64,000 nt of DNA from a virus (taxonomy: Duplodnaviria; Heunggongvirae; Uroviricota; Caudoviricetes), in IMG/VR virus record IMGVR_UViG_3300010429_001387, positions 1-64,000 of that record; one strand, 5' to 3'. This document shows, piece after piece, positions 4,437 through 46,021 of this stretch; the first letter of the stretch is position 1; each line of letters begins with the position of its first letter. The position numbers and the translations under genes were made by a program. The notes beneath the pieces were generated by a model. That model worked only from the letters and a program-made list of their open reading frames with translations. It made no database searches and was not told the DNA's origin.

Positions 4437-4456
4437 GGAATATTCTCAACTTTTAA

Positions 4457-28372: not shown

Positions 28373-28373
28373 A

Positions 28374-31799: not shown

Positions 31800-32148
31800 T
31801 TATAGGTTGTAATTCATCTTTGGAACTATGGTTATTATACTTATCAATTAAATAAAGTAAATGGTTTGCAAAACGTTTAGTTGTTGCTCCATTAAGACAA
31901 ACCATATCATTAAACGGTGTTCCAGTCCGCAATATTTTCCAAGCCCAACGCAATCTGTCTTTCCAACCCAAACGATTATTACTGTATGGAGCCATTCCCC
32001 AAAATGCAATATTTACATGTGGACCACCTGCAATATCTTCATACCATGGATCGTCTTCAGCAACGATTACTAATCCCTCCCCACCACAATCACAAGGGAA
32101 TACCTTTAATACGGGAAGGGTACCAAATGCACCTTTTGAATCTTTCAT
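31777..32148 (-). CDS. Hypothetical protein (123 aa)
   Basis: ORF that overlaps its neighbours. Confidence 0.4.
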   Translation of the reverse strand: MKDSKGAFGTLPVLKVFPCDCGGEGLVIVAEDDPWYEDIAGGPHVNIAFWGMAPYSNNRLGWKDRLRWAWKILRTGTPFNDMVCLNGATTKRFANHLLYLIDKYNNHSSKDELQPIIEENENE

Positions 32149-32690
32149 TTTCGAAAATCCCTTTCAATCATCAATAATTTCCCCAACATGTTTAATCCTT
32201 GATCTTGACATTTTTGACAGAAACAACTTCCCCAAAAATTATCATGCCAATAATTACCTTCTTTTAACAATCCATCCGTTTGAAGCAATAACTCAACTAA
32301 GTCCGCATGTTGCTCGAATTTACAATAAACCAATTCAGCCATTACAGATAATTTAATTGCTTCCCAATCTGATCGGATAGGAAGGGTTTTACCTTTTGCT
32401 TTAGCCCTTGCTGCTGTAGATAATTGTAAGATAGCATCTGCATAATCTAAATTTTTTGCAGCTTGATATGCATGTTCAACTGTCGGCCATGTTCGTTGCT
32501 GCCAAATAATTGGGCTATGATAAAAATTACTTAAAAATCTGTATTCATTTTTGAATTCTAAAATCATTTCAATCGCCAAATAATATACACAAATCCAATT
32601 GCATCTATTATCAATTTTGCTGCTAACCAAACTAAAAAGACATAATCTGTGGATTTCATTTCTTCTTCCTAGGTGCTCGAGTTCTTCCAC
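32145..32690 (-). CDS. NADAR (YbiA-like) family protein
   Basis: 'YRFLSNFY...VEHAYQAAK...LKEGNYWHDNFWG' matches the NADAR signature (FLSNF, EHxYQxxK, EGN...WG). Confidence 0.6.
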   Translation of the reverse strand: MEELEHLGRRNEIHRLCLFSLVSSKIDNRCNWICVYYLAIEMILEFKNEYRFLSNFYHSPIIWQQRTWPTVEHAYQAAKNLDYADAILQLSTAARAKAKGKTLPIRSDWEAIKLSVMAELVYCKFEQHADLVELLLQTDGLLKEGNYWHDNFWGSCFCQKCQDQGLNMLGKLLMIERDFRK

Positions 32691-32868: not shown

Positions 32869-32983
32869 TCCTTTGATTTATCACGACACCAATTTTTAGA
32901 CTTCTCTTTCTTCTTGTCTTTAAAGACATTTGTTGGAGGAGGCATTTTACCTCTAGGAAGTTTTGGTTTATTCTTTTTCATAA

Positions 32984-33055
32984 CTCCCCAGGAAAGAATC
33001 GAACTTTCATTTTGCGGTTAACAGCCGCACGTTCTACCATTGAACCACCAGGGAA
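32984..33055 (-). tRNA. tRNA-Asn: tRNA-Asn (GTT)
   Basis: Manual fold gives acceptor TCCCTGG/CTGGGGA, D stem GTTC/GAAC, anticodon stem TGCGG/CCGCA with loop CTGTTAA, and T arm GAAAG-TTCGATT-CTTTC. No CCA is encoded. Confidence 0.65.
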
Positions 33056-33056
33056 G

Positions 33057-33129
33057 GTGACCACTGGAATTCGAATCCAGACACCAGGAGCCACAATCCT
33101 GTGCTCTAACCAGTTGAGCTATGGCCACA
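33057..33129 (-). tRNA. tRNA-His: tRNA-His (GTG)
   Basis: Acceptor GTGGCCA/TGGTCAC, D stem GCTC/GAGC, anticodon stem CAGGA/TCCTG with loop TTGTGGC, T arm CTGGA-TTCGAAT-TCCAG, and discriminator C. No encoded G-1 and no CCA. Confidence 0.7.
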
Positions 33130-33131
33130 GT

Positions 33132-33214
33132 GACGGTGAAGAGATTCGAACTCTTACACCCTGAAGGGTATTGGTTCTTGAAACCAATGCGTCTGCCAAT
33201 TCCACCACACCGTC
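33132..33214 (-). tRNA. tRNA-Leu: tRNA-Leu (CAA), class II with a long variable arm
   Basis: Acceptor GACGGTG/CACCGTC, anticodon stem TTGGT/ACCAA with loop TTCAAGA, variable arm CCCT..AGGG, and T arm AAGAG-TTCGAAT-CTCTT. Confidence 0.7.
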
Positions 33215-33311
33215 AAAACTCCTAAGATCTTCACGTCTGCCATATCACTAAGGCTATGTAAAATGTAGTCTACCAAACTCATTTTCCTTACAGACCTTAT
33301 AAGATATCTTA

Positions 33312-33384
33312 GGAATTAAATAGCGGTGGATGGATTTGAACCATCGACCTTCTCCTTATGAGGGAGCTAAGCTAACCACTGCTC
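33312..33384 (-). tRNA. tRNA-Met: tRNA-Met (CAT); could be the initiator or Ile-lysidine type
   Basis: Acceptor AGCGGTG/CACCGCT, D stem GAGC/GCTT, anticodon loop CTCATAA, and T arm GATGG-TTCAAAT-CCATC. Confidence 0.65.
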
Positions 33385-33392
33385 TACACCGC

Positions 33393-33465
33393 TAAAATAT
33401 TGGACCGTGGAGAGACTCGAACTCTCATTCTGAACATTGCAAGTGTTCCGCTTTCCCAATTAAGC
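33393..33465 (-). tRNA. tRNA-Ala: tRNA-Ala (TGC)
   Basis: Acceptor GGGCGTG/CACGGTC with a G3·G70 mismatch, D stem GCTT/AAGC, anticodon stem GAACA/TGTTC with loop CTTGCAA, and T arm GAGAG-TTCGAGT-CTCTC. Confidence 0.55.
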
Positions 33466-33480
33466 TACACGCCCATAAAA

Positions 33481-33745
33481 TTGAATGTTCAGCCCTGACC
33501 CATCATACCGGCTTTCTCCGTCGAGCAGCCACGTCGTCGACAACACCTGCCAGGAAGAGGTTGTTCTCATAAACATTCAATTATTTTTAAAGCTCAGCGG
33601 GGCAAAACCCTATCAAGCCGTCCAGCGGCACTGAGCTATTATAATGAATCATTTGGCAGGGATTTACACCACTGCATATGGACCGCGTATCGGCTGTTCG
33701 ATTGTAATAGGATACGGCTGATCAGGCTACCACCCATTACATCCC
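33481..33745. ncRNA. GC-rich ORF-free structured island, a candidate ncRNA or small inserted element, flanked by 10-bp direct repeats
   Basis: About 55% GC against an AT-rich background. No ORF of 60 aa or more. Nested stems are visible (AGCTCAG...CTGAGCT enclosing GCCG/CGGC; GTCGA...TCGAC). The direct repeat CCCTGACCCA sits at 33484 and 33734. Confidence 0.35.
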
Positions 33746-33799
33746 TGACCCACTTAACCGTTGCAAGCGTCTACTTATTCCGCCACAAATGATTCTATT

Positions 33800-33988
33800 T
33801 TATTCTTCAAACTCATCAACAAATGTATCAAAGTCATCATAATTAAACTTATTCAAAACAGCTTTGATTTTCATCCTTGATTGCTTATTTTGCATCTTAC
33901 GTTGTGTTGCATTAGGCTTTACACGACTTTCACTATCCACCACGTCATCAAACTGTTCTCTACGAGGTCTGCGATTTGTACTACTCAT
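33800..33988 (-). CDS. Small basic protein (62 aa)
   Basis: ORF on the coding strand, Arg/Lys-rich. Confidence 0.35.
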   Translation of the reverse strand: MSSTNRRPRREQFDDVVDSESRVKPNATQRKMQNKQSRMKIKAVLNKFNYDDFDTFVDEFEE

Positions 33989-33999
33989 GTTACTTACCT

Positions 34000-34296
34000 T
34001 TACGTTCCTTTCTCAACAATTGCAAGAATATCATCAAATTCCAACAACAAACACTCACCATCATCCATTTCTAATGTTGTTCCACCTTGTGTAGAAATCA
34101 ACACCTTATCTCCAACAGCACATGGCTGTGGAGCTTGTACACCTGAAGGATATGTCTTTCCTGGACCAATGGCAAGTACATCTGCTATCGTTCCAAGAAT
34201 CTTTGCACTTGCCGGAAGAACAATTCCTCCTTCGGTCTTTGTCTTTGGAGGCTCACGTTTTACAATTACTTTATTAAAAGACGGTTTAAATTTCAA
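34000..34296 (-). CDS. groES: GroES-family co-chaperonin
   Basis: 'KVIVKREPPKTKTEGGIVLPASA...DVLAIGPGK...GDKVLIS...ILAIVE' matches the GroES pattern along its full length at 98 aa. Confidence 0.65.
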   Translation of the reverse strand: MKFKPSFNKVIVKREPPKTKTEGGIVLPASAKILGTIADVLAIGPGKTYPSGVQAPQPCAVGDKVLISTQGGTTLEMDDGECLLLEFDDILAIVEKGT

Positions 34297-34317
34297 TTTG
34301 CTTTCTCCTTAAAACAA

Positions 34318-34503
34318 TTATTCCATTTCAATTAAAGCATGATTATCTCTCTCACGAAAGAGACGATCCATTGCTTGTGCTCGATTAACAAACTCTGTAT
34401 TATACTGATGCTTATTCCGAAAATTAATCGAAACTTCTGAATCAACACCATAGCGATGCAACAAAGCTGTGTAATCAATGATGAGATGTCCTGCTGCTTT
34501 CAT
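34318..34503 (-). CDS. Hypothetical protein (61 aa)
   Basis: Short ORF between GroES and tRNA-Pro. Confidence 0.3.
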   Translation of the reverse strand: MKAAGHLIIDYTALLHRYGVDSEVSINFRNKHQYNTEFVNRAQAMDRLFRERDNHALIEME

Positions 34504-34531
34504 TATGAACCTTTCAAATATATTTCGTTAA

Positions 34532-34607
34532 TCGGAATGGCAGGATTCGAACCTGCGATTACGTGGTCCCAGGCCACGTGGCTTAAACCAAACTAGCCCA
34601 CATTCCG
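34532..34607 (-). tRNA. tRNA-Pro: tRNA-Pro (TGG)
   Basis: Acceptor CGGAATG/CATTCCG, D stem GGCT/AGCC, anticodon stem CGTGG/CCACG with loop CCTGGGA, and T arm GCAGG-TTCGAAT-CCTGC. Confidence 0.65.
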
Positions 34608-34621
34608 AATATTATACTTGT

Positions 34622-34918
34622 TTAAACAATGATTTTTGTTAATTCAATTTCTATATACGGATAATGATTGCACGCTCCAGACTCAAAATAAACCTCATCC
34701 CGGCAGAAACAATGTGTAACTTTACAAACTTTCAGACGTTTTCCTCCTCTAGATTCAATCCATTCCCCTTCTCTTGGAACAGCAACAAACCGTTCCGGCC
34801 AACATTCCATTCTATATTCATCAAGATTAGTTCGACAACGACCACGAATCATTTTATAATTCTCCTCTCTTAAAATTTTAAAACCGAGCACCCTACTCAC
34901 TAGATGTTCTGGCGGCAC
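34622..34918 (-). CDS. Cys/His-rich hypothetical protein (98 aa)
   Basis: ORF containing 'CKVTHCFCRDE...GACNHY'. Confidence 0.4.
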   Translation of the reverse strand: MPPEHLVSRVLGFKILREENYKMIRGRCRTNLDEYRMECWPERFVAVPREGEWIESRGGKRLKVCKVTHCFCRDEVYFESGACNHYPYIEIELTKIIV

Positions 34919-34948
34919 ATCATTGCTTTCAGGTGCCTCGAAGCAGAA

Positions 34949-35020
34949 TAGACCTGGTTGGATTTAAACCAACAACGACACCCTTATAAGGGGTGTGCTC
35001 TATCGTTGAGCTACAGGTCA
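34949..35020 (-). tRNA. tRNA-Ile: tRNA-Ile (TAT)
   Basis: Acceptor TGACCTG/CAGGTCT with a 1-72 mismatch, D stem GCTC/GAGC, anticodon stem CACCC/GGGTG with loop CTTATAA, and T arm GTTGG-TTTAAAT-CCAAC. Confidence 0.55.
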
Positions 35021-35021
35021 T

Positions 35022-35092
35022 TTGACCTACATGGATTTGAACCAGGATCGCACGATTATCGGTCGTGTACTCTACCATTGAGCTATAGGTCA
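35022..35092 (-). tRNA. tRNA-Ile: tRNA-Ile (GAT)
   Basis: Perfect acceptor TGACCTA/TAGGTCA, D stem GCTC/GAGT, anticodon stem CACGA/TCGTG with loop CCGATAA, and T loop TTCAAAT. Confidence 0.6.
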
Positions 35093-35093
35093 C

Positions 35094-35164
35094 CAACTCC
35101 ATTAGGATTTGAACCTAAACTGGGAGATTCAAAATCTCCAGTGCTGCCGTTACACTATGGAGTT
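35094..35164 (-). tRNA. tRNA-Gln: tRNA-Gln (TTG)
   Basis: Acceptor AACTCCA/TGGAGTT, anticodon stem GGAGA/TCTCC with loop TTTTGAA, and T arm TTAGG-TTCAAAT-CCTAA. Confidence 0.65.
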
Positions 35165-35376
35165 AAAAATACAGAATGAAAAACACAACCGAATTCTATT
35201 CAGGGTTAATTAAAATTTTGCGATTCGTAAACATGTCCCTTATCAACTCTTCTTATTCTCAAAAATATACCAAGACCGCATTTTCGCCCGCACGAACGAG
35301 GAATTTGTAACCTTTAAATATTGGCTTTGTTCCTCCTCAGCCTTTCATTCTGTATTAAATTTTCAAAGAAACTAAA

Positions 35377-35450
35377 TAGCCCTGATCAGATTTGAACTGA
35401 CGTCTTTGGCTTGAAGGGCCAATATCCTAGACCGACTAGAAGACAGGGCC
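35377..35450 (-). tRNA. tRNA-Glu: tRNA-Glu (TTC)
   Basis: Acceptor GGCCCTG/CAGGGCT, anticodon stem TTGGC/GCCAA with loop CCTTCAA, and T arm GTCAG-TTCAAAT-CTGAT. The D-arm geometry is slightly non-canonical. Confidence 0.5.
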
Positions 35451-35454
35451 AAAA

Positions 35455-35921: not shown

Positions 35922-37883
35922 TTACACTTTCTTTTCTTCTGCTATTTCAGTTACACAAGCATCACCATATTTATCCATCCAGGTTAGATAATCTCGCTGC
36001 TCCAAGAAATTGATGTCAATTGGATTCTCAGCCGGATTATCAATTATCATTATACGTTCATTCAATTTGTCCTTGGTATCTTCAGTAACATGTGAAGACA
36101 TTACAGCTGGTAGGCATGCATACACATCAGTATTGAATCTACCTTCATTTAATCTTGGACATCTTCGCACTTTAGCCTCAATAATTGTAGTGGCGTCAAA
36201 ATCATCTTCTACACTAGAAATTAATCGAATTGGTTTCTTTTCTTCTTCTTTTTTAACTGGTGGAACAGCCGGAACGGGACCACCAGCTGGGGGCACGGCT
36301 CCAGGTTGTTCCATTGGAGGCATTGCCTCAGCAGCAGCTTTTGCTGCAGCAGCTTCTGCCTCTTTAGCAATAACATCTTTGGATTTGTAAAAATCTTCGA
36401 TACGAAAATCTTCTAATCGCAGGATCTTATCATTATAATACTCAAACACCTTTTCGGGATCCAATTTACGTCCACTAACTTTCTTTAGCGTCGACATAAA
36501 TGATCCTAATGTTTTCAATCCAGTTTCCAAACCTTTGCGAATTGCATTTTCTTCTGCGGTAGAAGTTTCTGCCATTTGAATTTGGAACAATTGTGGATCT
36601 GGATCCATCCCTTTATATGCAAGATGGATCTGACACATACGAACTAAACCATTAATTAGTGCTCTTTGGATTCTTCTCGCAGATCTAGCAAATCGAATAC
36701 CTAACTGTTCAATTGCTTCGGATCCTAATGATCCTGTTGCCTCTTTTACATAACCACCTAACAATGATGGTGGCGTTGCCAATGCTGTCGCTAATTGATT
36801 TCGAAGATTATCAATATCAACAATCCAACGAATGTCAGCTTCCCCACCAACTTTCTCATAAGTAAGATCATTAATATCACCCCAAACAGGAATGAATATA
36901 TCTTCGATAGCAGAGATAGATGAATTCTTCGAATCGAAAGACGCTGAACCTTCTCTTGTATCAATAGCTCTTGCTCTTGTTATAAGAGTTGCATATTGAT
37001 CCATAAGAGACGAAACAGCTTCCATATTTGTACCATCAACTTTATACTTCCAGATGTATTTGATAATACCTCTTGTAACACGAGCAAGTAACAAACTATC
37101 TTCTGCTAAGCGAAGTCGTTTGTATGATGGCAAGGCATTAAGGAGCAATGATGTCCCATATCGTGTTGTCACTTGTCTTGTTTCAGATGTTGTGATAAGA
37201 TTAACACTTCTCATCTCCGAATATTGATTTTCAGCAAATCGAGAACGTCTCTTAATACCACCCAACAATCTCATGTGTACATATTTCCAAGGTGGAATTA
37301 ATGTGTTCTTCTCTGTAGATTGATTACCCGAAAAACCTTGCAACGATTTATAAAACCCTACGAGTATACCTTCATATTCAACACGAGAAGTATTCATGGG
37401 ATGTTCTGCATCATTAATAGAAACGATACCTAATCCCGGCATACCATTTAATTCAATAAACAAATCACCATATGCAGCCAATGTAAAGGCCCAATCATGA
37501 ATCCTTTCTTCTATCGAAATCCTGTCAAACAGATCATTTAATTCCCGCTGGTAGGTTTCCGAATCAGCTTGCACCCAGCAAGTCGCACCATGAATTGGAG
37601 AAAATGGTGTACTTGTTCCGGCGTATAATTCTATAGCAGGACCCACCATCCAATGGGTAATTGCCCGTTCAACTTCCTGGTAAATATTCCACCGATCCCA
37701 ACTAATTTCAATATCTGCATTAATTGACCGTTGAACCATTTCCGCAGTGATACCTGCTTTTTTGATCATGCGGATAACTTCTTCGGTAGCATTTTCGCCT
37801 TTGACTACCTCAGTCGGAATCATCGGAGGTTTGGGTGTGAGATCAGGAAGAAGTGAATTAAATGGGTTTTGGGTATAAGGCAT
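35922..37883 (-). CDS. Portal protein (candidate)
   Basis: 653 aa. The C-terminal tail is Ala/Pro/Glu-rich and low in complexity. Size and composition are typical of myovirus portals. This is my recollection of the pattern only. Confidence 0.45.
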   Translation of the reverse strand: MPYTQNPFNSLLPDLTPKPPMIPTEVVKGENATEEVIRMIKKAGITAEMVQRSINADIEISWDRWNIYQEVERAITHWMVGPAIELYAGTSTPFSPIHGATCWVQADSETYQRELNDLFDRISIEERIHDWAFTLAAYGDLFIELNGMPGLGIVSINDAEHPMNTSRVEYEGILVGFYKSLQGFSGNQSTEKNTLIPPWKYVHMRLLGGIKRRSRFAENQYSEMRSVNLITTSETRQVTTRYGTSLLLNALPSYKRLRLAEDSLLLARVTRGIIKYIWKYKVDGTNMEAVSSLMDQYATLITRARAIDTREGSASFDSKNSSISAIEDIFIPVWGDINDLTYEKVGGEADIRWIVDIDNLRNQLATALATPPSLLGGYVKEATGSLGSEAIEQLGIRFARSARRIQRALINGLVRMCQIHLAYKGMDPDPQLFQIQMAETSTAEENAIRKGLETGLKTLGSFMSTLKKVSGRKLDPEKVFEYYNDKILRLEDFRIEDFYKSKDVIAKEAEAAAAKAAAEAMPPMEQPGAVPPAGGPVPAVPPVKKEEEKKPIRLISSVEDDFDATTIIEAKVRRCPRLNEGRFNTDVYACLPAVMSSHVTEDTKDKLNERIMIIDNPAENPIDINFLEQRDYLTWMDKYGDACVTEIAEEKKV

Positions 37884-37970: not shown

Positions 37971-38318
37971 TCAAAACAATATGACCTCAACAGACACATT
38001 ATTCCTTTTAGCTAAATCAATTGTTGATTTAGTACCTTTTGATTTACCATCCCAGAATGCTAAAATGAAATCTGAATCTAACACAATCAACTGATTTCTT
38101 AAGAAACCAGCAGATTTTCCAAATGTTTTCCAATCAGGAAGATGTATTGTTTTTCCAAGATTGTTTTCGTTGGCAAATAGTTCGGCTAATTGATCTGCTC
38201 CTTTAGCTCCTCCTGATATTAAATGGAAGGGTATTAACAGCGTTAAATAACTTTCTAAAAGAGAATAGTTATTGAAACTCCTAGATCCAACAACCCCAAT
38301 CTTAGGGATTTCCATCAA
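37971..38318 (-). CDS. SLOG/DprA-like Rossmann-fold protein
   Basis: 'GVVGSRSF...ISGGAKGADQLAE' is a GGxxGxD-type SLOG/LOG/DprA-like nucleotide-binding motif. Confidence 0.4.
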   Translation of the reverse strand: MMEIPKIGVVGSRSFNNYSLLESYLTLLIPFHLISGGAKGADQLAELFANENNLGKTIHLPDWKTFGKSAGFLRNQLIVLDSDFILAFWDGKSKGTKSTIDLAKRNNVSVEVILF

Positions 38319-38631
38319 CTCTTATTCCTGTGTTGGGGATCACTTGGATGGCTCTGTCATCCCAACATTCGATCATAAGATAATCTTTTTGATATGTTAC
38401 TTCAAGTGGAGGCAATCCATATTTCTTACACCAAGCATGGATAATTCGAATATCAAAATCTGGTTGGGAAGCTCGGGCAGTAAATATCTTGACTCGTTTG
38501 CCTTCTGCTAACATATTCTTAACACGTGAAAGCATCAAAGGCACAGCTTCACCAATATGGTGTGAACCTCGCCATTCATCATAATACGCTAACGTACCAT
38601 CCAAATCAATTGCAATCCAACCTTTATCCAT
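38302..38631 (-). CDS. HAD-superfamily phosphatase (small)
   Basis: Motif I 'IAIDLDGTL', a conserved Thr in 'KIFTARAS', and Lys/Asp later in the sequence. Confidence 0.5.
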   Translation of the reverse strand: MDKGWIAIDLDGTLAYYDEWRGSHHIGEAVPLMLSRVKNMLAEGKRVKIFTARASQPDFDIRIIHAWCKKYGLPPLEVTYQKDYLMIECWDDRAIQVIPNTGIRVDGNP

Positions 38632-38813
38632 TATTTAATTCCTTAATATATTTGCTTTTGAATACTTTCAAATTGTTTATATACTGCAGGTTTCATACAA
38701 GCCTTAATCAACTCATCTGTATTTTTCGGGGGCATTAACCAATCAAAATGAGCAGTCTGTAAAAAGGCTATCATTAATGTCCACTCATTATAACTTGGAG
38801 CTATATTTAGCAT

Positions 38814-39740
38814 TTAAACCTCTCTCAAAAATTGCGGAAGTGAACCCACAATCCAAAAACAGTTTCGTTTTCCTTTAAACAATTCAGGATCATCTAACAT
38901 CCATACAAAAACTTTCGCTTCATAATGGGGGTGAAGTTCAGTCCCATCAGGCAAAAACGCTTCCACTTGCTCTTCATATTTCCAACCATCTGTATATGCA
39001 TCAACATAATGGAATGGGATATTCCACAAATCCAATCCAGACAGTATTGATAAGGTTGCAAGTCTTTCTCGGATCTTCTTTTCTCGATTTGGTGCTGTTC
39101 CAATTAACCAAACATCCTTAACTTGTTTATTATACTTTTTTAATCCATATAAAATGCCTGTAGATGTGATTCCAGATCCACAGTCAATTACCAAATTATC
39201 TAAATCATCTGGAAGATTCTTTACCTGATTTGCAGTTACATCATAAAATGCTTCCACATAATTTGTGTTCTGGCAATTAACACCATACTCCAAAAAGAAA
39301 TCACCTGGAAGCATTTCTTTCTTACCACACGATTGCAATACGTTTGATCTTCCAGAAGGAGCTAATTTAATTTCTGCTCCGAAATGCTTCACCAATCGTG
39401 GCATATGGTGTTTCTGGTGCTGCGGTGTCCCATACCATACAATGCATGGGAGATCATAATATCGGGCAACAGCAGCTGCCACAGGAGCTTGTGCGGATAA
39501 AACAGAGCACCCAGTAATAATTCGTTTGTATCCTTCTTTGACAATTAAAGAAAGTAAGAGGCATCCTTGCCTAAGTTTGCCTCCATTAAGGATGTCACTG
39601 CCAAAAGGGGAATACAAATCATCACGTTTATAATAAACCCCAGCCATTTCCTGCACAGGAGTTAGATCATAAACTTGGAGATCTTGGAGAGATTTGGACA
39701 TGTCAAAAATAGTAGAGATCGACAGGTGTAACAAGATCAT
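38814..39740 (-). CDS. PLP-dependent fold-type-II enzyme (ACC-deaminase/D-Cys desulfhydrase-like)
   Basis: 'YYKRDDLYSPFGSDILNGGKLRQ' parallels the ACCD family 'KRDDL...GGNKxRKL' PLP-lysine region. A Gly-rich 'DCGSGITSTG' loop is present. Confidence 0.5.
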   Translation of the reverse strand: MILLHLSISTIFDMSKSLQDLQVYDLTPVQEMAGVYYKRDDLYSPFGSDILNGGKLRQGCLLLSLIVKEGYKRIITGCSVLSAQAPVAAAVARYYDLPCIVWYGTPQHQKHHMPRLVKHFGAEIKLAPSGRSNVLQSCGKKEMLPGDFFLEYGVNCQNTNYVEAFYDVTANQVKNLPDDLDNLVIDCGSGITSTGILYGLKKYNKQVKDVWLIGTAPNREKKIRERLATLSILSGLDLWNIPFHYVDAYTDGWKYEEQVEAFLPDGTELHPHYEAKVFVWMLDDPELFKGKRNCFWIVGSLPQFLREV

Positions 39741-39942
39741 CTAAGTACATATATTCTAGTGAACCTCTTAGATCAAATTTTGTTTTAGGCACTACCAAAA
39801 CAGCATACTCTTCTTCATCCTTAATATAAATTGCTCTTCGACGTCCAATACGAAATGCATCTCCCATCATCAAATCACCGAACGGAACTTTCTTTGTTCT
39901 TGCCATGATCTTTCTCCTACTCATACATTTTAAAAATTTCAC
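39703..39942 (-). CDS. Hypothetical protein (79 aa)
   Basis: ORF that overlaps its neighbours. Confidence 0.35.
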   Translation of the reverse strand: MKFLKCMSRRKIMARTKKVPFGDLMMGDAFRIGRRRAIYIKDEEEYAVLVVPKTKFDLRGSLEYMYLDDLVTPVDLYYF

Positions 39943-40111
39943 CTGTTACCATATTTACTTGATAGTGTTTTCCAGACCCAGGAACAGTCATTTCAATTGT
40001 ATCATCTCGCATGCACAATGCTAATTGATTTCCCTCTTCTGTTTTTAATATTAAGGGATTATAAACCTTTTTAAGCACAAAAGCATATGCCTCATTTACG
40101 TCAATCTGCAT
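39917..40111 (-). CDS. Hypothetical protein (64 aa)
   Basis: Short ORF. Confidence 0.35.
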   Translation of the reverse strand: MQIDVNEAYAFVLKKVYNPLILKTEEGNQLALCMRDDTIEMTVPGSGKHYQVNMVTGEIFKMYE

Positions 40112-40123
40112 ATTTACTCGCTT

Positions 40124-41185
40124 TCAAATATCAAAGGTTTTGTCTTTGTCCACCGTGTCCAAACCCATAACATTATACCCAAACTTTGATTTAGCTATCT
40201 CACGCATTACATTTTCAAATGTAAGTTGATCCAATACATCTGATGCCCAAGATGATTGACACAAAGTTTTAAAGCAAACAGTGTGTCCAACTTCTTTCAT
40301 AGCTGGCGTTGGTTGTGGATCTTCTCCTGCGTAAATGTGATTGAGATTGAATGTGTTGTGTTGGAAACCCGGAACTCCTTCACAACCACAACATACCAAC
40401 GAATCTCCCATCCAACGCAAACGATTTTCACCACAGAAAAACTTAAGATTCAACTCATGGGCTCTATCACGGATTTGTTCAAAGTGATGTTGCAGAATAT
40501 TTAAGGGATAAACAAAGTCGGCTCCAACCTGTATTGTCCCAGGCTGTTTTCCATCATAAAACTTCATACCTTCAACCACAACACCATATGCTCCAGCATT
40601 TTGAACTTGAGGAATAGTAATCGTTAATACTTTTTCAAGTTCGGTAATCATATACGGCTGAATACGAACAATAACTCTTTTTGATACTTTTGCAAGTTTA
40701 CCAATAATTTCCACACGTTCTTTAAATGGAGGAGCTCCAGCATCCAAAACATCATATGATGGAGAAACTAACGACACTTGCATAACTGCATTACATTGTG
40801 AAATCAAATCAAGATATTCAGGTTTTGCAACAATCCTTCCTTTTGTGGAAGCAAGAAATGGGTGTTGACTTTCAGCTAAAATCTTTAGAGCTTCAAATGA
40901 AATCTTATACTTATCTTCACACGGTTGAAAAGGATCTGACATCCCTCCTATGTGAATCGGGAATTTCCAATCCTTATCAATCCAAGATAGTTCGCCTTTT
41001 CTCTCGCCTGCAATAAAATTTCGAAGTGCTGTTAAACTATCACCTTTTTCAATATCCACATCTTGCCCAATTCGATCATCTAATTTGCGACGAGTAAAGC
41101 AATATTGGCAAGAATGTGTACATCCCTTATATGGATCCCATCTTACAGGCACAGAACACAGCACGACTTGGCTTCCACATCTCAC
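40124..41185 (-). CDS. Radical-SAM enzyme, SplB/'DNA repair photolyase' (COG1533)-like
   Basis: 'DPYKGCTHSCQYCFTRRK' fits the CxxxCxxC cluster in the PYxGCxHxCxYC context I recall for spore-photoproduct-lyase-like radical SAM proteins. Confidence 0.55.
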   Translation of the reverse strand: MRCGSQVVLCSVPVRWDPYKGCTHSCQYCFTRRKLDDRIGQDVDIEKGDSLTALRNFIAGERKGELSWIDKDWKFPIHIGGMSDPFQPCEDKYKISFEALKILAESQHPFLASTKGRIVAKPEYLDLISQCNAVMQVSLVSPSYDVLDAGAPPFKERVEIIGKLAKVSKRVIVRIQPYMITELEKVLTITIPQVQNAGAYGVVVEGMKFYDGKQPGTIQVGADFVYPLNILQHHFEQIRDRAHELNLKFFCGENRLRWMGDSLVCCGCEGVPGFQHNTFNLNHIYAGEDPQPTPAMKEVGHTVCFKTLCQSSWASDVLDQLTFENVMREIAKSKFGYNVMGLDTVDKDKTFDI

Positions 41186-41188
41186 GAT

Positions 41189-41422
41189 TTATCCTTTCGC
41201 TTGAACTAATTTTTCTTTACAATACTCAACAACATGAGCAGCCAATTCTGTTTTCCCAAACTTCTTAAAATAATTATTAACAATTTCAAAATCTTCGATA
41301 TTCCAAGTCAAACTCGCCGACATGTAAATCTGAGCACCAACGTTCTCAGCAGCCTTTAATACAGCTTCTTTAATACTATTATTTTGGATTTTACACCAAA
41401 GTGGAGGTTTAAATGTGAACAT
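41189..41422 (-). CDS. Hypothetical protein (77 aa)
   Basis: ORF on the coding strand. Confidence 0.35.
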   Translation of the reverse strand: MFTFKPPLWCKIQNNSIKEAVLKAAENVGAQIYMSASLTWNIEDFEIVNNYFKKFGKTELAAHVVEYCKEKLVQAKG

Positions 41423-41633
41423 TCCTTTTTCTCCTTTTAATAAGAACTTTTAGGGAATCGGGATCATGAATACTAGGCCCCATTATCCATGTGAATGGTC
41501 CTAAACAAGCTACGATAAATCCCATCATTAAATCACTTGTTCGGAGGTCAAAGTCCGAAGTCCACCAATATACAAATCCAATAAATCCAACTATCCACCA
41601 CAAAATAAGACCCAGCGTTATTAATAGTACCAT
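41409..41633 (-). CDS. Small membrane protein (74 aa, two TM segments)
   Basis: 'LLITLGLILWWIVGFIGFVYWW' and 'MMGFIVACLGPFTWIMG'. Confidence 0.4.
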   Translation of the reverse strand: MVLLITLGLILWWIVGFIGFVYWWTSDFDLRTSDLMMGFIVACLGPFTWIMGPSIHDPDSLKVLIKRRKRNVHI

Positions 41634-41816
41634 TTCTCAATCTCCAAAATCATAGTCAGCCCAATAGATATCACTGTGTAGCTGATCAACAACTCGATTA
41701 ATAATTTCCCCAACGACTTTAATTTGTTCTTCAGTTAAATTTGCTTCTTTAAGTTTCACATCAATGTCGGCCCAAGTCATTGCATTCTCCTTAACAAGAG
41801 AGGACACCGCTGTTCT

Positions 41817-42071
41817 TTAAGCAGATTTAAAACGGTTCATTATCTCCTCAAGTGTTTTGTCAGGATGCATCCACAGCAGAAAATCCTTTAAACAATACTG
41901 ACACAAATCAATTGAAATTTCCAAGTCATCATACCAACTATCATATCCACCAATTGTTGACGCGAAAAGACCTTCATAATTATAGGCTTGTTTACAAGTT
42001 TTCCCACACCTATCACAAATAATATCTTTCAGGACTTCGGTACTTCTTTCAATGATTTCATGCCGTTTCAT
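41817..42071 (-). CDS. Small Cys-containing protein (84 aa)
   Basis: 'CDRCGKTCKQ...CQYC'. Confidence 0.35.
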   Translation of the reverse strand: MKRHEIIERSTEVLKDIICDRCGKTCKQAYNYEGLFASTIGGYDSWYDDLEISIDLCQYCLKDFLLWMHPDKTLEEIMNRFKSA

Positions 42072-42385
42072 TGTTCATCCTTTAATTTAATCAAAGTAAC
42101 TTCTTTCTTTTCTTCTTCTCCCAGCAAAATCCCTTCCACTTGCTCCCATGACATCTTAACAGCATACCCAGCACCACAATTAAGCCTCAACAATGTACCA
42201 GGGATGCCGATCGGTTCACCATCAGGACCTTTCATATTGGAAGGCAACGTAATTGGTTCTAACGCTGCAACTTGATCCTTATGGAATCTTACTTGCTTTT
42301 CGATCACAGCCAACTGATTTCCCATTTGACGCATTTCAACAACTTGCATTTCTACAAAATTAGGAAGCATGGTTTCTCCAATCAT
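42068..42385 (-). CDS. Hypothetical protein (105 aa)
   Basis: ORF with overlapping ends. Confidence 0.4.
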   Translation of the reverse strand: MIGETMLPNFVEMQVVEMRQMGNQLAVIEKQVRFHKDQVAALEPITLPSNMKGPDGEPIGIPGTLLRLNCGAGYAVKMSWEQVEGILLGEEEKKEVTLIKLKDEQ

Positions 42386-43077
42386 ACAAAACTTAGGAAT
42401 TCAACTTGTAAATTCGAATTAATTCCAAAATGTTTATCTACAAGATGCTTTAACCAAACATCTTTTTCTTCTAATGACATTAATTCATTAACAATGTACA
42501 CATCAAACACTTTTGCCTTTAATGCTTCACCCCAAGATAATGTTGCGTAAGAATCCAATAAATTGCATCCAGATTCTATCAACAAATCTCTTGTATATTC
42601 CGCAACACCATCCAACGCTGTTTCAGATTTGTGTTTATCTGTATCAGCAAATGGAGCTTTCGTTAATCGAATTACTAACCCATTATGTTCTTGAATATAC
42701 TTTAATTCATTTCGAAATCGAACATCGGGAGTTATAACAATGTCTACAAATAGTTCTTGCAATTTTTTAGCATATGCATTGACCCAACAATCTGAAAACA
42801 TTTCACGAAACCAATCTGTTCCTACAATTTGTAACATTTGCCTCACAGTTTTATTGCAAGGCAACATTCTATTTTTATTCTCATCAGGCTCCAAGTCTTT
42901 GATTGTCCAATTCCACTCCGTAGGAACAAAGCAGTCAATAACTATTTCTTTAAGTTTGTCGGCAAAACAGACAATCTCAGTTTTTGTTGCAAATTTCTCC
43001 TGAAGCAATTTACTCAAAGTTGCAGCCGCAGTACTTTTGCCAGATTGTTTCTTTCCTGAGATCCCAATTATCAACAT
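42382..43077 (-). CDS. P-loop kinase (dNMP-kinase-like; alternatively a 5-hmdU DNA kinase-like protein)
   Basis: N-terminal Walker A 'IIGISGKKQSGKST', the same position as in T4 gp1-type kinases. 231 aa. Confidence 0.5.
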   Translation of the reverse strand: MLIIGISGKKQSGKSTAAATLSKLLQEKFATKTEIVCFADKLKEIVIDCFVPTEWNWTIKDLEPDENKNRMLPCNKTVRQMLQIVGTDWFREMFSDCWVNAYAKKLQELFVDIVITPDVRFRNELKYIQEHNGLVIRLTKAPFADTDKHKSETALDGVAEYTRDLLIESGCNLLDSYATLSWGEALKAKVFDVYIVNELMSLEEKDVWLKHLVDKHFGINSNLQVEFLSFV

Positions 43078-44065: not shown

Positions 44066-46021
44066 TCATCCATGGTGTAAACCTCGTATCTTTTTCAATA
44101 GTTCATTATACTGAATTGCCTCTTGATTCTTTGGTGGAATTGGGTCTTCTCGCTTGATTTGTATGCCTGCATCTACCCACCAGAGTTTTTCCGCTTCCCT
44201 TACTTCTGGCTTCATTTTTCCAAACAATTGATTCATCATCTCAATATCTGGTGGGGTAATACATTCTTTGATTGCTTGTGTTATAGAACCACCAACCGCA
44301 TCACTAATATCTTTTGACCCCATAAGAACTATTTCGCGGAGATTGCCTGTTTCCAACATTTCAACTTCCACAACTTCAGCAGGATGATCAACCATATTCT
44401 TTTCAGGGTCATCTTCAAGATTCTTTAATTCAAAATGCAGATATGGGTGCCACGGTGTGGACCATCGGCCTTCACAAACTAATGTAGCAAAATCCCTATA
44501 GTCTTGGGGATTTTTATCCATAGATAGATAGTCACAGGCTATGCCAGCACGTTCGAGAATTTGTTTGGTATCTTCTGTTCCGATTCTTAAATCGAAAGTA
44601 CATCGATGGATATTAAACTTACAAACTTCTTTAAGATCTAAAATGAACTTACGAATTTTGTGGATCGGAATCTTGTCACCAGGGTGTGCCTTGATACGCA
44701 TTGCAAAGTCCGTGTGGGTCACAGGGACACGTTCTGTCCTGAATGTACCATCTGCATTTTCAATATTCTTTTTCGTCCACCCTGTAATGCAGGACATGGC
44801 TAATCCACTAGCATCCCCATCACCGGAATATGCGTAGTCCTGATGGATAAAGCGAGGAACATTCTTAGGAACTTTAATAGATGTTATGTCAAGAAAATTC
44901 ATTAAGTCAATGTTATCATTAAGTCCAACCTCAACTGTCATTAATTTAACAGGATTTGGGTCTTTCGTATAACATTTCATTAGCATGGTTTCAGAAGGAA
45001 ACAATTTGGAAACACGAACATGGGAAACAGATATGCCAGCGATGTCCCGAAGTGAGCAGACCAAATCTTTCTGAAATGGTTCTAAATATTCAATGGGGAC
45101 ATCAATAATTTGAAACCCTTTAGCCTGGAATTCTTTTGCTTCCTCATCTGTATCACAAATCTTTGGAGGATTGTAAATATCCCCAACAGAGACTTTAAAC
45201 TTCTTTCCACAATAATTCGAAGCTGGTTTTGCTTCCCAAATTGGAATATCAATGATAACAATATTTGGAGAATTTTTATACTTAGCAATAAATGTGTTTA
45301 AAAAGCTTAATCTTTCTTGCTTTGATGCAACAAGAAAAAATCTTCCAATTGTCTCACCTTTAACAATAAATCGAGAATCAAGACGTCTACGTGCATTTTC
45401 ATAGGCTTCAATAACTTTAGCTCGTTGAATATCGGATGCAACAGGAGAATCTACCTCGTCCATCAAAGCCAAAATGATATTTTCACCCTGAGTCCCAAAA
45501 CCTTGAACAAACGGTGATGCAAATGTATACTTAAACAAATTAAATTCTAACTTCGGTTGAAGCTCTGAGCCTTTCACAATCCCATGTTCACGGAACCAAG
45601 ACGAACTTAATAGCATGGTTTGAAAGAGTTTGTATCCGGTGCTTTCGGATTGAGATTTTGTTAAATTAAAAAACACAATCGACATCTGCGAACCAGACCC
45701 AAGTTTAAAGTATTCCCAAGGGTTTTTCAAACATAGAATTCGACACATTGTATACAACATACCTATAATTGCTGTATACGTTTTTCCTCCCCCAATACAA
45801 CCCGTAAAGACATATAAAAATTTAGAATCTTCTTGAGCCACCTTCTCCAACACTTGTTGCCAAATTGGATACACTACACTCCCATTATTGGTAATAGTGC
45901 CTAAATACTTAGGATCAGCAAGGAATTGCTTAATTGTGGGCGGTCGTTCTTTGTAATTAAGTGAGTATATGTACTCTATATAATTTTCAATTTTGTGATC
46001 CATTTGAACTTCCTTTTTCAA
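44066..46021 (-). CDS. Terminase large subunit (candidate)
   Basis: Walker A 'FTGCIGGGKTYTA' and Walker B-like 'IILALMDEVD'. The C-terminal half has clustered acidic residues ('IHQDYAYSGDGDASG'). 651 aa. Confidence 0.5.
   Translation of the reverse strand: MKKEVQMDHKIENYIEYIYSLNYKERPPTIKQFLADPKYLGTITNNGSVVYPIWQQVLEKVAQEDSKFLYVFTGCIGGGKTYTAIIGMLYTMCRILCLKNPWEYFKLGSGSQMSIVFFNLTKSQSESTGYKLFQTMLLSSSWFREHGIVKGSELQPKLEFNLFKYTFASPFVQGFGTQGENIILALMDEVDSPVASDIQRAKVIEAYENARRRLDSRFIVKGETIGRFFLVASKQERLSFLNTFIAKYKNSPNIVIIDIPIWEAKPASNYCGKKFKVSVGDIYNPPKICDTDEEAKEFQAKGFQIIDVPIEYLEPFQKDLVCSLRDIAGISVSHVRVSKLFPSETMLMKCYTKDPNPVKLMTVEVGLNDNIDLMNFLDITSIKVPKNVPRFIHQDYAYSGDGDASGLAMSCITGWTKKNIENADGTFRTERVPVTHTDFAMRIKAHPGDKIPIHKIRKFILDLKEVCKFNIHRCTFDLRIGTEDTKQILERAGIACDYLSMDKNPQDYRDFATLVCEGRWSTPWHPYLHFELKNLEDDPEKNMVDHPAEVVEVEMLETGNLREIVLMGSKDISDAVGGSITQAIKECITPPDIEMMNQLFGKMKPEVREAEKLWWVDAGIQIKREDPIPPKNQEAIQYNELLKKIRGLHHG

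Follow-up and report, generated by a model that had tools for sequence, protein, structure and literature searches.

A radical-SAM and PLP enzyme module in a Caudoviricetes genome and its possible role in late DNA hypermodification

A radical-SAM (rSAM) enzyme gene, a fold-type-II PLP enzyme gene and a short open reading frame were identified in a Caudoviricetes virus as a module that may hypermodify DNA bases late in infection, with the rSAM enzyme acting first, the PLP enzyme tailoring the product, and both working independently of the known 5-hmdU pathway. We hold this reading at about even confidence. The window, i.e., the whole stretch of DNA that was analyzed, comprises positions 1 to 64,000 of the IMG/VR record IMGVR_UViG_3300010429_001387 and, together with a 10-kb flank, gives a visible sequence of ~76 of the ~128 kb of the presumed genome (a 127,878-bp contig). 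It is from the homology, catalytic motifs and gene linkage shown below that we infer substrate, chemistry and biological role.

A sequence-only reading had proposed a hypermodification island of five enzyme genes, encoding a kinase, an rSAM enzyme, a PLP enzyme, a HAD phosphatase and a SLOG protein. ORF calling and profile searches confirmed its coordinates, minus-strand orientation and family calls for all five, the motifs in every gene for which it had quoted one, and the setting between the portal (Portal_T4, 35922-37883) and large terminase (44066-46021) genes. The five genes are tightly packed, with overlaps or gaps of less than 15 nt. Given that the whole window is equally co-directional and packed (89 of 101 ORFs are on the minus strand in a rough ORF call), their adjacency by itself lies within what chance can give; scans for promoters and terminators gave signal at shuffle level. 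What does go beyond chance is the rSAM-PLP linkage, conserved in about 50 other phage loci, a type of linkage not shared by the genes for the kinase, HAD and SLOG proteins.

The rSAM enzyme (40124..41185, minus strand, 353 aa) is the core gene of the module. Its motif CTHSCQYC corresponds to a conserved CX3CX2C at C22/C26/C29, and the family invariants also include C10, C131, C265, C266 and an SDPFQP motif. Matches were obtained to Radical_SAM and to the Rv2578c/PA0069-type family (COG1533, "SplB-like") at 1e-17, and within NCBIfam the best match was the uncharacterized Rv2578c family (64 bits versus a cut-off of 430), with no spore photoproduct lyase (SPL) model returned. For the AF2 model (pLDDT 88.8), the top solved structure was the SPL 4fhc (E = 2.7e-6, TM 0.51-0.53), with the RiPP maturases SkfB and SuiB only narrowly behind. 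The earlier description of the enzyme as SplB-like is supported. Comparison with M6 gp53 gave a probability of 91% over 258 columns by hhalign and a pairwise E of 0.007, and the two families are bridged by proteins of 400-450 aa, which match the rSAM family at 1e-42 to 1e-53 and gp53 at 1e-9 to 1e-11. By these comparisons, the enzyme is SPL-like and a distant homologue of gp53. Homologues sharing 45-62% identity were located in 93 loci from phages, prophages or MAGs; the family was not found in any cultured INPHARED phage, the sole INPHARED match being partial, 30% identical and from a metagenome-derived record.

The PLP enzyme (38814..39740, minus strand, 308 aa; 295 aa in database gene calls, which start at M14, nt 39701) carries KRDDL and NGGK (K38, K55) and matches PALP (43.2 bits, cut-off 35) and phrog_3650 (6e-50). 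Its nearest solved structures are ACC-deaminase/D-Cys-desulfhydrase; the fold assigned previously stands, and the closest phage relatives of the enzyme form the DNA-acting gp226/gp52 clade. Over its full length, the enzyme is homologous to ViI gp226 (phmmer E = 5.6e-33) and M6 gp52, and a tblastn search retrieved 348 phage records, mostly ViI-like Ackermannviridae. K55 aligns with ViI gp226 K92 and M6 gp52 K36 and is proposed to be the counterpart of the conserved Schiff-base lysine; the family invariants are K38, R39, D41, K55, R57, S82, S189, Y273, K276, W296 and G299. As judged by this homology, the protein belongs to the same family as gp226 and gp52, for both of which decarboxylation of amino-acid adducts on DNA thymine has been demonstrated, and DNA polymers are the substrate of the characterized relatives of both the rSAM and PLP enzymes (PMC8989533). 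Given the relationship of the two enzymes to gp53 and to gp226/gp52, it is reasonable to infer that they have a role in DNA hypermodification, with the PLP enzyme as a putative accessory tailoring enzyme.

Directly upstream of the rSAM gene lies a 77-aa ORF (41189..41422, minus strand) that we liken to the C-terminal tail (~40 aa) of the ParB_N-like proteins preceding rSAM in other phages: its residues 34-70 match positions 156-192 of 194 of the HMM of these proteins (cluster 1), weakly, at E = 4.7e-6 as a single target and 1.6e-3 against all window ORFs. A homologous small ORF occupies the same position in two relatives, L004 (E = 1.9e-14) and L088 (E = 1.7e-17), and an RHH fold was tried for the ORF without confirmation. 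In 90 of the 94 related loci, the rSAM gene comes after ParB_N-like genes, which are similar to the N-terminal module found in ParB-DNA-methyltransferase fusions (phrog_498, 7e-42; PADLOC MTase_II, ~1e-34). Apart from the ParB-tail-like ORF, small ORFs flanking rSAM are not conserved. The 77-aa product could possibly be an adaptor or DNA-binding partner.

Linkage was compared across these 94 phage or prophage loci, taking ±10 kb around the rSAM gene. In 52 of 90 related loci, rSAM is immediately followed downstream by PLP, and rSAM occurs without PLP in about 40% of loci; PLP presence is mixed even between rSAMs at least 90% identical, as expected of a tailoring step. The pair also occurs in two further arrangements, one in the lineage of the window, L004 and L088, and one in L175, where a SAM-synthetase gene adjoins the rSAM gene, as it also does in L094. 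Carriers of the module include temperate prophages, one of them in Faecalispora jeddahensis (L006), and among the hosts of the relatives are many Clostridia, a class with numerous spore formers. No homologues of the kinase, HAD or SLOG genes were found in the 94 loci, nor are these genes conserved with the rSAM/PLP pair in a collinear 90-kb relative. The island of five genes is therefore not sustained, and the conserved core, as delimited by these comparisons, is the rSAM, the PLP and the 77-aa ORF.

The kinase (42382..43077, minus strand, 231 aa; N-terminus MLIIGISGKKQSGKST) matches PF21448 DNMK (47.7 bits, cut-off 27.1; 1.9e-12) and phrog_139 (2.4e-33) and has no match to PF18748 (5-hmdU DNA kinase, HMUDK), which M6 gp54 and ViI gp67 do match. 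Among the reference proteins, it matches only the ordinary "dnk" of ViI, and its tblastn homologues are phage dNMP kinases, e.g., of Streptomyces, Arthrobacter and Caulobacter phages. A function as DNA kinase on 5-hmdU was thus rejected, an ordinary dNMP kinase being the very outcome that the sequence-only reading had set against its own proposal for this gene. The small HAD-like phosphatase (38302..38631, minus strand, 109 aa, DLDGTL) matches phrog_1238 (1.2e-7), phrog_415 "polynucleotide kinase" (3e-4) and, weakly, HAD-IIIA (2.4e-3), and may represent the phosphatase half of a polynucleotide-kinase/RNA-repair set that has been split. A PNK-like kinase is encoded at 27935-28465 in the window and an RNA-ligase-like gene is present in the right flank. 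The SLOG (YAcAr) protein (37971..38318, minus strand, 115 aa) matches PF10686 (37.2 bits, cut-off 28.2) and phrog_289 (2.6e-21). These three are ordinary nucleotide, RNA-repair or NAD-related phage genes, nearby by chance. The UDG-PolA fusion, MazG and NADAR, previously said to fit a modified-DNA lifestyle, are not diagnostic of modified DNA; the nearest relatives of the window PolA are from Herelleviridae and Vibrio MAR10-like phages, at about 25% identity.

Searches of the window and 10-kb flank yielded no dUMP hydroxymethylase, 5-HMUDK (PF18748) or amino-acid:DNA transferase (AADT, PF18724). For the window, the reported lack of a hydroxymethylase holds both in the profile search of all ORFs (best 25 of 68 Pfam families) and in the reference-protein comparison; the suggestion that the gene may lie elsewhere was not borne out in the flank (~76 of ~128 kb covered) or in the 45 kb of the collinear relative, from portal to contig end and including the whole replication region, where the other two genes were not found either. 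The same three were not found within ±10 kb in the 94 loci, among them prophages whose whole stretch between the replication module and the terminase is covered. The remaining ~40% of the presumed 128-kb genome could carry missing pathway genes of this phage. Not finding the kinase, transferase and hydroxymethylase of the known pathway is suggestive of a DNA-modification route not described before.

By such a route, the small protein, encoded like the rest of the module in the late region and immediately upstream of the packaging genes, would direct the rSAM enzyme to phage DNA that has just been replicated; in most other phages, this role would fall to two ParB_N-like proteins of the kind seen in DNA-methyltransferase fusions. 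With a [4Fe-4S] cluster and SAM, the rSAM enzyme would generate a 5'-deoxyadenosyl radical and act on a DNA base, most likely at the thymine C5-methyl(ene) by analogy with SPL and M6 gp53, creating or rearranging an amino-acid-bearing side chain. Where present, the PLP enzyme would engage that side chain's free alpha-amine in a Schiff base and decarboxylate the chain, leaving an aminoalkyl group, in the manner of ViI gp226 and M6 gp52. The steps from 5-hmdU through 5-phosphomethyl-dU to amino-acid transfer would be bypassed. Counting against this explanation are the distance of the homology to gp53, the narrow lead of SPL among the structural matches, the weak match of the 77-aa ORF and the need for an amino-acid side chain with no transferase found to supply it. 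The product, if the explanation is true, would be a bulky, positively charged base shielding the DNA from host nucleases.

Several other explanations were weighed. Chance assembly of five unrelated auxiliary genes in a dense single-strand genome is very improbable as an account of the whole: it agrees with the co-directional, tightly packed window and with the unlinked kinase, HAD and SLOG genes, for which it stands, but for the pair it is refuted by rSAM-PLP adjacency in 52 loci and three gene arrangements. Somewhat less improbable, and still quite doubtful, is a pre-replicative scheme, in which rSAM and PLP modify a free deoxynucleotide and the dNMP kinase, HAD and MazG-like proteins channel the dNTP pool for the phage polymerase. 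The kinase and small HAD genes do flank the pair, a MazG-like gene lies at 56224-56601, and gut-phage relatives have, ~4 kb upstream, a gene that looks MazG-type by eye (cluster 12, no Pfam family); however, the kinase and HAD are missing from every related locus, the characterized relatives of both enzymes use DNA polymers, the partners present almost everywhere are ParB_N modules like those in DNA-methyltransferase fusions, and a late-region position beside the terminase fits post-replicative action.

It is also unlikely that no base is modified at all, the rSAM being an SPL-like DNA-repair lyase or a peptide, small-molecule or anti-defense enzyme and the substrate of the PLP enzyme a free metabolite resembling an amino acid. 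SPL as top structural match and the many clostridial hosts would fit a lyase, the closeness of SkfB and SuiB and the small ORFs beside the rSAM gene a peptide maturase, and the loci without PLP and the ACC-deaminase/D-Cys-desulfhydrase fold agree as well. Yet NCBIfam gave Rv2578c, far below its cut-off, instead of an SPL model, the flanking ORFs are not conserved save the ParB-tail-like one, PADLOC gave no hits, the PLP enzyme shares invariant residues with its nearest, DNA-acting phage relatives, and the ParB/MTase-type partners indicate DNA-sequence or DNA-loading functions. An unlikely explanation, too, is the canonical M6-type pathway with its missing genes elsewhere in the genome, in which incorporated 5-hmdU would be phosphorylated by a DNA kinase and substituted with an amino acid before isomerization by the rSAM and decarboxylation by the PLP enzyme. 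The homology to M6 gp53/gp52 and ViI gp226 is the part of the proposed M6/ViI-type thymidine hypermodification that stood, and incomplete genome coverage also leaves room for this pathway; its kinase, hydroxymethylase and transferase are the part that did not, in any of the sequence searched, and the module is present in temperate prophages.

In ViI, the genes of the pathway are scattered across >100 kb, a precedent for the canonical explanation; the DNMK-type "dnk" that ViI encodes next to its hydroxymethylase also speaks for that explanation. A ViI-like member of the PLP family directly adjoins an ADDT gene, whereas no such gene was found with the module described here. In M6, as here, the rSAM and PLP genes are adjacent, and its gp53, of which the window rSAM is a distant homologue, is a glycinyl-thymine isomerase.

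The five ORFs that the sequence-only reading had joined into a candidate DNA hypermodification island lie on the minus strand, flanked by a T4-type portal gene (35922-37883) and the large terminase gene (44066-46021). Each contains the motif quoted for it, and profile searches confirmed the general family calls: a P-loop kinase (42382-43077), a radical-SAM (rSAM) enzyme (40124-41185), a fold-type-II PLP enzyme (38814-39740), an HAD-like protein (38302-38631) and a SLOG protein (37971-38318). The HAD-like protein is very short (109 aa) and has motif I (DxDGT, present as DLDGTL), with all of its family matches below threshold (HAD-IIIA at 18 bits against a cut-off of 44.6; phrog_1238 at 1.2e-7). 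The SLOG/YAcAr protein matches PF10686 at 37.2 bits (curated cut-off 28.2) and phrog_289 at 2.6e-21. Promoter and terminator scans for operon boundaries gave chance-level results. In a rough ORF call of the whole window, 89 of 101 ORFs are on the minus strand, and the dense packing is window-wide, the five-gene region included. Since the whole window is equally packed, the adjacency of the five genes says little, and conserved linkage elsewhere is the real test.

The locus set consisted of 80 IMG/VR loci and 13 MAG or prophage loci with the rSAM gene at 45-62% identity, and 10 kb on either side was analysed for each. In 52 of the 90 loci having downstream sequence, the PLP gene lies immediately next to the rSAM gene. 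Its presence is mixed even where the rSAM enzymes are at least 90% identical, so that it behaves as an accessory tailoring gene. Directly upstream of the rSAM gene, 90 of the 94 loci have ParB_N-like genes of ~190 aa, usually two; of the four exceptions, two break off upstream of the rSAM gene, and the other two form the window-like lineage (the 90-kb contig L004, and L088). In related loci, small and large terminase genes are found downstream of the module. For the dNMP kinase, the HAD protein and the SLOG protein of the window, none of the 94 loci has a homologue. The closest relatives, L004 and L088, have in common with the window's set no more than the rSAM and PLP genes and, upstream of the former, a small ORF that is the counterpart of the 77-aa ORF at 41189-41422. 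What survives of the proposed island is therefore its rSAM/PLP part, conserved as a module; the kinase, HAD and SLOG genes fall outside it, and annotating them as hypermodification genes is unwarranted. The island reduces to an rSAM enzyme, a ParB-type partner and an optional PLP enzyme of the type of Salmonella phage ViI gp226.

For the ParB-like proteins, the best matches are to the module found at the N-terminus of phage and type II DNA methyltransferases (phrog_498, 7e-42; PADLOC MTase_II, about 1e-34). DndB and DpdB are other ParB_N-domain partners of DNA-modifying enzymes (PMC10853773). The 77-aa ORF of the window aligns with the last ~40 residues of the ParB-like proteins. When a ribbon-helix-helix domain was considered for this ORF and the ParB tail, hhalign aligned in register at 2-3% probability and Foldseek gave no significant match; a single-sequence AF2 model (pLDDT 62) has a beta-alpha-alpha C-terminal half. 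Neither the rSAM nor the PLP enzyme matched PADLOC defence systems. Among prophages of isolate genomes, the module is present in Faecalispora jeddahensis (L006; GCA_030825295.1, JAPJQE010000004.1 at ~55-76 kb, in the order ParB-ParB-rSAM-PLP) and in Peptoniphilaceae bacterium AM52-5BH (L094), the latter having the rSAM gene without the PLP gene. A third arrangement is seen in L175, where an rSAM gene of the same family (445 aa) is followed by a SAM synthetase gene, several other genes and then the PLP gene. The SAM synthetase directly after the rSAM gene is full-length in L175 (6494-7558) and an N-domain-only protein in L094 (11018-11803), which is consistent with a local supply of SAM.

Several further genes were observed around the module in the relatives. 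Not far upstream of the rSAM gene, L004 (8960-9772) and L088 (3278-4060) have a gene for a second CxxxCxxC protein, ~265 aa long and without a Pfam family, and in both a Dam-type methyltransferase gene directly follows the PLP gene; neither protein has a homologue in the window. Pentapeptide-repeat proteins (L004, 11449-12675; L179, 9066-9815) are encoded between the rSAM and PLP genes and at other places in the 90-kb relative, whose portal gene contains an intein.

The rSAM enzyme is of the COG1533 or "DNA repair photolyase" type, with the Rv2578c and PA0069 families as best NCBIfam matches. The cysteines of its CX3CX2C motif (C22/C26/C29) are invariant, and its score against Radical_SAM (28.1 bits) is slightly below the cut-off of 29.5. 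An AF2 model built on a 27-sequence alignment (pLDDT 88.8) has a partial TIM barrel matching rSAM structures, with spore photoproduct lyase (SPL, 4FHC) as top solved-structure match (E=2.7e-6, TM 0.51-0.53, 273 columns) by a small margin over SkfB and SuiB. When compared by hhalign with gp53 of Pseudomonas phage M6, the rSAM profile aligned at 91% probability over 258 columns, the (S/T)DPF(Q/L)P motif included. Proteins of 400-450 aa form a tier with matches to the rSAM family as well as to gp53 (1e-9 to 1e-11), so that the homology between the two is transitive. Profile and model comparisons relate the enzyme specifically to gp53 and SPL and not to other rSAM families, a grouping also supported by the Rv2578c/PA0069-type matches; the relationship is distant, and the margin over SkfB and SuiB is small. 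The earlier description as SplB-like can thus be kept for the SPL/gp53-like fold and distant homology, and not in the sense of an SplB equivalog proper: the spore-photoproduct-lyase model was absent among NCBIfam matches at E≤0.1, and a PDB sequence-profile search did not retrieve SPL.

An exhaustive profile search placed 275 representatives (~275 clusters at 50% identity) in the rSAM family at E≤1e-30, and some of the 90%-identity clusters hold 900-1650 member sequences each. The members come from many metagenomic phage contigs, apparently mostly gut-derived, and from prophages of isolate genomes; among the cultured phages of INPHARED none carries the gene. A single-protein search of IMG/VR returned no close relatives, for which alignment-based searches had to be used. 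Some members are longer (413-451 aa) and share at the C-terminus a conserved extension whose motif resembles TGTQMxSHWLC...PTPEQFEKL, among them those of two related loci (L086, 9992-11281; L097, 9995-11329) and the database representatives P0030, P0061, P0092, P0119, P0194 and P0217. The extension has no Pfam match, no second ORF in the loci contains its motif, and both loci examined are without a PLP gene; the idea of a methyltransferase-type module was dropped on the first two of these grounds. Apparent rSAM-PLP and ParB-rSAM fusions in the short database representatives P0253, P0270 and P0303 are probably truncated or chimeric gene calls and were left out of account.

Among solved structures, ACC deaminase and D-cysteine desulfhydrase come closest to the PLP enzyme. 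Among characterised members, it is homologous over its full length to ViI gp226 (E=5.6e-33) and Det7 gp191 (E=2.1e-33), with a match to phrog_3650 at 6e-50 and a weaker one to M6 gp52 (E=4e-5). A tblastn search against cultured phages matched 348 records, mostly of ViI-like Ackermannviridae. In the multiple alignment, window K55 shares its column with ViI K92 and M6 K36, residues proposed by Lee et al. as Schiff-base lysines (PMC8989533); the column is invariant in 18 sequences, and further residues are invariant throughout the family. The proposed PLP enzyme is thus upheld and can be placed more narrowly, as a member of the family of the DNA-acting decarboxylases gp226 and gp52, with the putative Schiff-base lysine conserved. 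Two ViI-like members of the PLP family were also noted: P0191, a metagenomic protein, is encoded directly beside a PF18724 amino-acid:DNA transferase (ADDT) gene, and P0172 (516 aa, on a 231,716-bp JGI contig) is fused to a PF14082 domain.

The kinase, in turn, had been read as a 5-hmdU DNA kinase (5-HMUDK), a role against which the sequence-only reading itself would have counted the profile of an ordinary dNMP kinase, and this is the profile that was found. It matches PF21448 (DNMK) at 47.7 bits against a Pfam curated cut-off of 27.1 and phrog_139 at 2.4e-33, with the P-loop GxxGxGKS/T at residues 6-16. Of 422 phage records matched, those listed are mostly annotated as dNMP kinases, Streptomyces, Arthrobacter and Caulobacter phages included. 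The dedicated 5-hmdU DNA kinase family PF18748 (HMUDK_HMUD1) is matched by M6 gp54 (7.7e-18) and ViI gp67 (2.6e-116) and not by the window kinase, whose sole match among all M6 and ViI reference proteins is ViI "dnk". A 5-HMUDK assignment is ruled out by this family membership, by the phage dNMP kinase homologues and by the missing PF18748 match. A second P-loop protein (27935-28465), also considered as a DNA kinase, is polynucleotide-kinase-like and was rejected.

The rest of a 5-hmdU pathway (Lee et al. 2018/2021) was searched for with M6 gp51 and gp55 (aGPT-Pplases), gp54 (5-HMUDK) and gp58 (hydroxymethylase), with ViI gp67, gp243, gp247 and the thyA-like protein, and with a metagenomic ADDT (L174). 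The sequence covered comprised the window, 10 kb beyond its right end and ~2 kb beyond its left, so that of a presumed genome of 127,878 bp ~40% (~50 kb) was outside coverage; for the collinear 90-kb relative, 45.4 kb were assembled, starting at the portal gene, taking in the entire replication region and reaching the end of the contig. No reference query matched in the window, its flanks, the 94 related loci or the 45.4 kb of the collinear relative. For the kinase step, phmmer with M6 gp54 and ViI gp67 and gp243 found nothing in any of these. For the amino-acid:DNA transferase (AADT), the M6 gp51 and gp55, ViI gp247 and L174 queries were equally without a match in the same sequence, which covers ~60% of the window phage's genome, and PF18724 is absent from the precomputed Pfam annotation of L003, L004, L006 and L175. 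For the dUMP hydroxymethylase (HMase), M6 gp58 and the ViI thyA-like protein matched nothing in the sequence examined, which leaves out ~50 kb of the genome. Thymidylat_synt, TET/JBP, HMUDK and ADDT are absent among the Pfam matches listed for the window ORFs (in one scan, the best 25 of 68 families), and Thymidylat_synt and TET_JBP are absent from those of the collinear relative's extension, TET/JBP being judged by Pfam and not by a reference-sequence query. The kinase and transferase steps of an M6/ViI-type pathway, which the earlier interpretation presupposed, were therefore not found in the covered sequence or in the 94 loci. That P0191 was seen directly beside an ADDT gene indicates that the method can detect such genes when present. 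For the window phage itself, absence is unproven because of the ~50 kb outside coverage. Two ~340-aa proteins adjoining the polymerase were considered as a hidden HMase or AADT and discarded, having no Pfam match and no match to the reference enzymes; one of them matches phrog_1362 (unknown function) and is conserved in the collinear relative.

Other genes had been taken as fitting a modified-DNA lifestyle. The UDG-PolA fusion (58646-61285, 879 aa) is a family-A DNA polymerase that has, besides a 3'-5' exonuclease domain, a UDG domain at its N-terminus. UDG-fused PolAs are found in phages with T-modified DNA; the nearest cultured-phage relatives of this one are in Herelleviridae and Vibrio MAR10-like phages (~25% identity). 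As far as is known, most Herelleviridae have canonical DNA, and the fusion is therefore non-diagnostic. MazG-like, NADAR and SLOG genes are common phage auxiliary genes, and MazG and NADAR are likewise not diagnostic of modified DNA. NADAR (32145-32690), DUF4326 (31107-31430 region) and SLOG/YAcAr (37971-38318) occur in the same phage and may form an NAD/ADP-ribose-related gene set. The PNK-like kinase (27935-28465), the PNK-phosphatase-like HAD (38302-38631) and an RNA-ligase-like (PHA02142) gene in the right flank of the window (L168, 6682-7914) are dispersed and could be a split tRNA/RNA-repair set. Between the NADAR and portal genes, ten tRNA genes (Asn, His, Leu, Met, Ala, Pro, Ile x2, Gln and Glu) lie on the minus strand at 32983-35451. 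Also among the auxiliary genes are a GroES/Cpn10 homologue (34000-34296) and a trypsin-like serine protease with a hydrophobic N-terminus (29400-30221). Paralogous ORFs of ~60 aa with similar N-termini are found at 26703-26888, 26891-27079 and 30928-31110, the first two with MKAW..K...KKNLYWDD. At 1833-5883 there are three tandem paralogous cassettes, in which ORFs of 188, 166 and 187 aa sharing the N-terminus M..QLF.NL..I.EE.DFDSAFQP.S are interleaved with others of 207, 305 and 287 aa; the cassettes may be exchangeable and encode tail fibres or chaperones.

The methyltransferase-type ParB partners, the late-region position by the terminase genes, the occasional SAM-synthetase neighbours and the homology of both enzymes to DNA-acting ones point to post-replicative chemistry on DNA just before packaging. 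Since the rSAM gene occurs without the PLP gene and PLP enzymes of this clade are always accompanied by an rSAM enzyme, the most likely order is that the rSAM enzyme comes first and its product is then tailored by the PLP enzyme; to judge from homology, this tailoring would be the decarboxylation of an alpha-amino acid side chain. The route probably bypasses 5-hmdU, as no kinase, transferase or hydroxymethylase was found and the module occurs in temperate prophages. By analogy with known enzymes, we tentatively propose that the ParB-like and rSAM proteins, with or without the PLP enzyme, may form a self-contained DNA hypermodification system independent of 5-hmdU. The rSAM enzyme would act directly on a canonical base of duplex DNA and functionalise it, most plausibly by abstracting hydrogen from the thymine C5-methyl group to give a methylene radical, as in SPL and gp53; an amino-acid-type group, possibly from SAM or a free amino acid, would then be attached, and the PLP enzyme would optionally decarboxylate it to an amine. 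Such a system would still be related to the known hypermodification of phage DNA by gp53/gp52-type enzymes; that the installation chemistry is categorically new has a realistic, if limited, chance.

Other explanations have to be weighed against this proposal. A canonical 5-hmdU pathway, with the missing genes elsewhere in the genome, would have room in the uncovered part and would suit enzymes related to gp53 and gp52; as none of these genes was found in the covered sequence or within 10 kb on either side in the related loci, we regard it as unlikely. A pathway on free nucleotides could draw on the neighbouring kinase and phosphatase, the former being a dNMP kinase by family; both genes are missing from every related locus that has the module, and this explanation seems to us highly improbable. 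Repair, peptide or small-molecule functions are suggested by SPL as the top structural match and by the closeness of SkfB and SuiB to it in the structural ranking; a repair role leaves the linkage of the rSAM gene to PLP and ParB-like genes unexplained, and such functions are in our view improbable. Pure chance applies to the presence of the kinase, HAD and SLOG genes only.

To our knowledge, all known thymidine hypermodifications proceed via 5-hmdU, a DNA kinase and an amino-acid:DNA transferase. As 5-HMUDK served as the bait when T-hypermodification clusters were surveyed in metagenomes (PMC8989533), a kinase-less system would have been missed there, and no description of a phage module of rSAM, ParB and PLP was found in the literature searched. 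If the proposed route is true, this would be the first radical-SAM enzyme to install a DNA base modification, as opposed to rearranging or repairing one. If the DNA is modified, the module would represent a new enzymatic logic for DNA hypermodification, a possible reason why gut phages resist restriction or show sequencing bias, and a source of new DNA-modifying enzymes for use as tools. Phages and prophages associated with the gut appear to carry it in abundance, and since some carriers sit in isolate genomes (L006, L094), it is directly testable.

Compared with known systems, the closest parallel is the tailoring pair of M6 (Lee et al. 2021, PMC8989533), where the rSAM enzyme gp53 (glycinyl-thymine isomerase) and the PLP enzyme gp52 (decarboxylase) of 5-NedU tailoring are adjacent, as are the rSAM and fold-II PLP enzymes of the window. 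Both rSAM enzymes are SPL-like with CX3CX2C and (S/T)DPF(Q/L)P motifs, and the PLP enzymes are homologous with the same lysine. In contrast to M6, where the pair sits between gp51 (amino-acid:DNA transferase) and gp54 (5-HMUDK) in a genome with a dUMP hydroxymethylase, none of these was found here or in the 94 related loci; the window rSAM enzyme is ~130 aa shorter (~21% identity in the local match), the gene order is reversed, and the partners of such rSAM enzymes are, unlike in M6, ParB_N-like proteins or the 77-aa ORF. The closest characterised relative of the window PLP enzyme is ViI gp226, an experimentally characterised PLP-dependent O-serinyl-thymidine decarboxylase of the 5-NeOmdU pathway (about 29-31% identity over ~95% of the length). 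ViI has no rSAM partner and uses the gp67 and gp243 kinases, the gp247 transferase and a thyA-like hydroxymethylase; its type of PLP enzyme has insertions and an NGSK motif, where the window enzyme has NGGK. SplB (PDB 4FHC) is likewise a radical-SAM enzyme and acts on thymine C5-methylene in DNA; identity in the structural alignment is 14%, and the window enzyme differs in its additional invariant cysteines (C10, C131, C265/266) and its linkage to PLP and ParB-like genes. The window kinase belongs by the curated cut-off to the T5/phiC31-type phage dNMP kinases (PF21448, phrog_139), from which it differs in an extra ~70-aa C-terminal region without a family match. Finally, the ParB_N domain is shared with ParB-methyltransferase fusions; here it occurs in a stand-alone protein of ~190 aa that is duplicated, ends in a distinct C-terminal tail and has an rSAM enzyme as its partner where the known fusions have a methyltransferase, and the window phage retains only the tail-like 77-aa ORF in its place.
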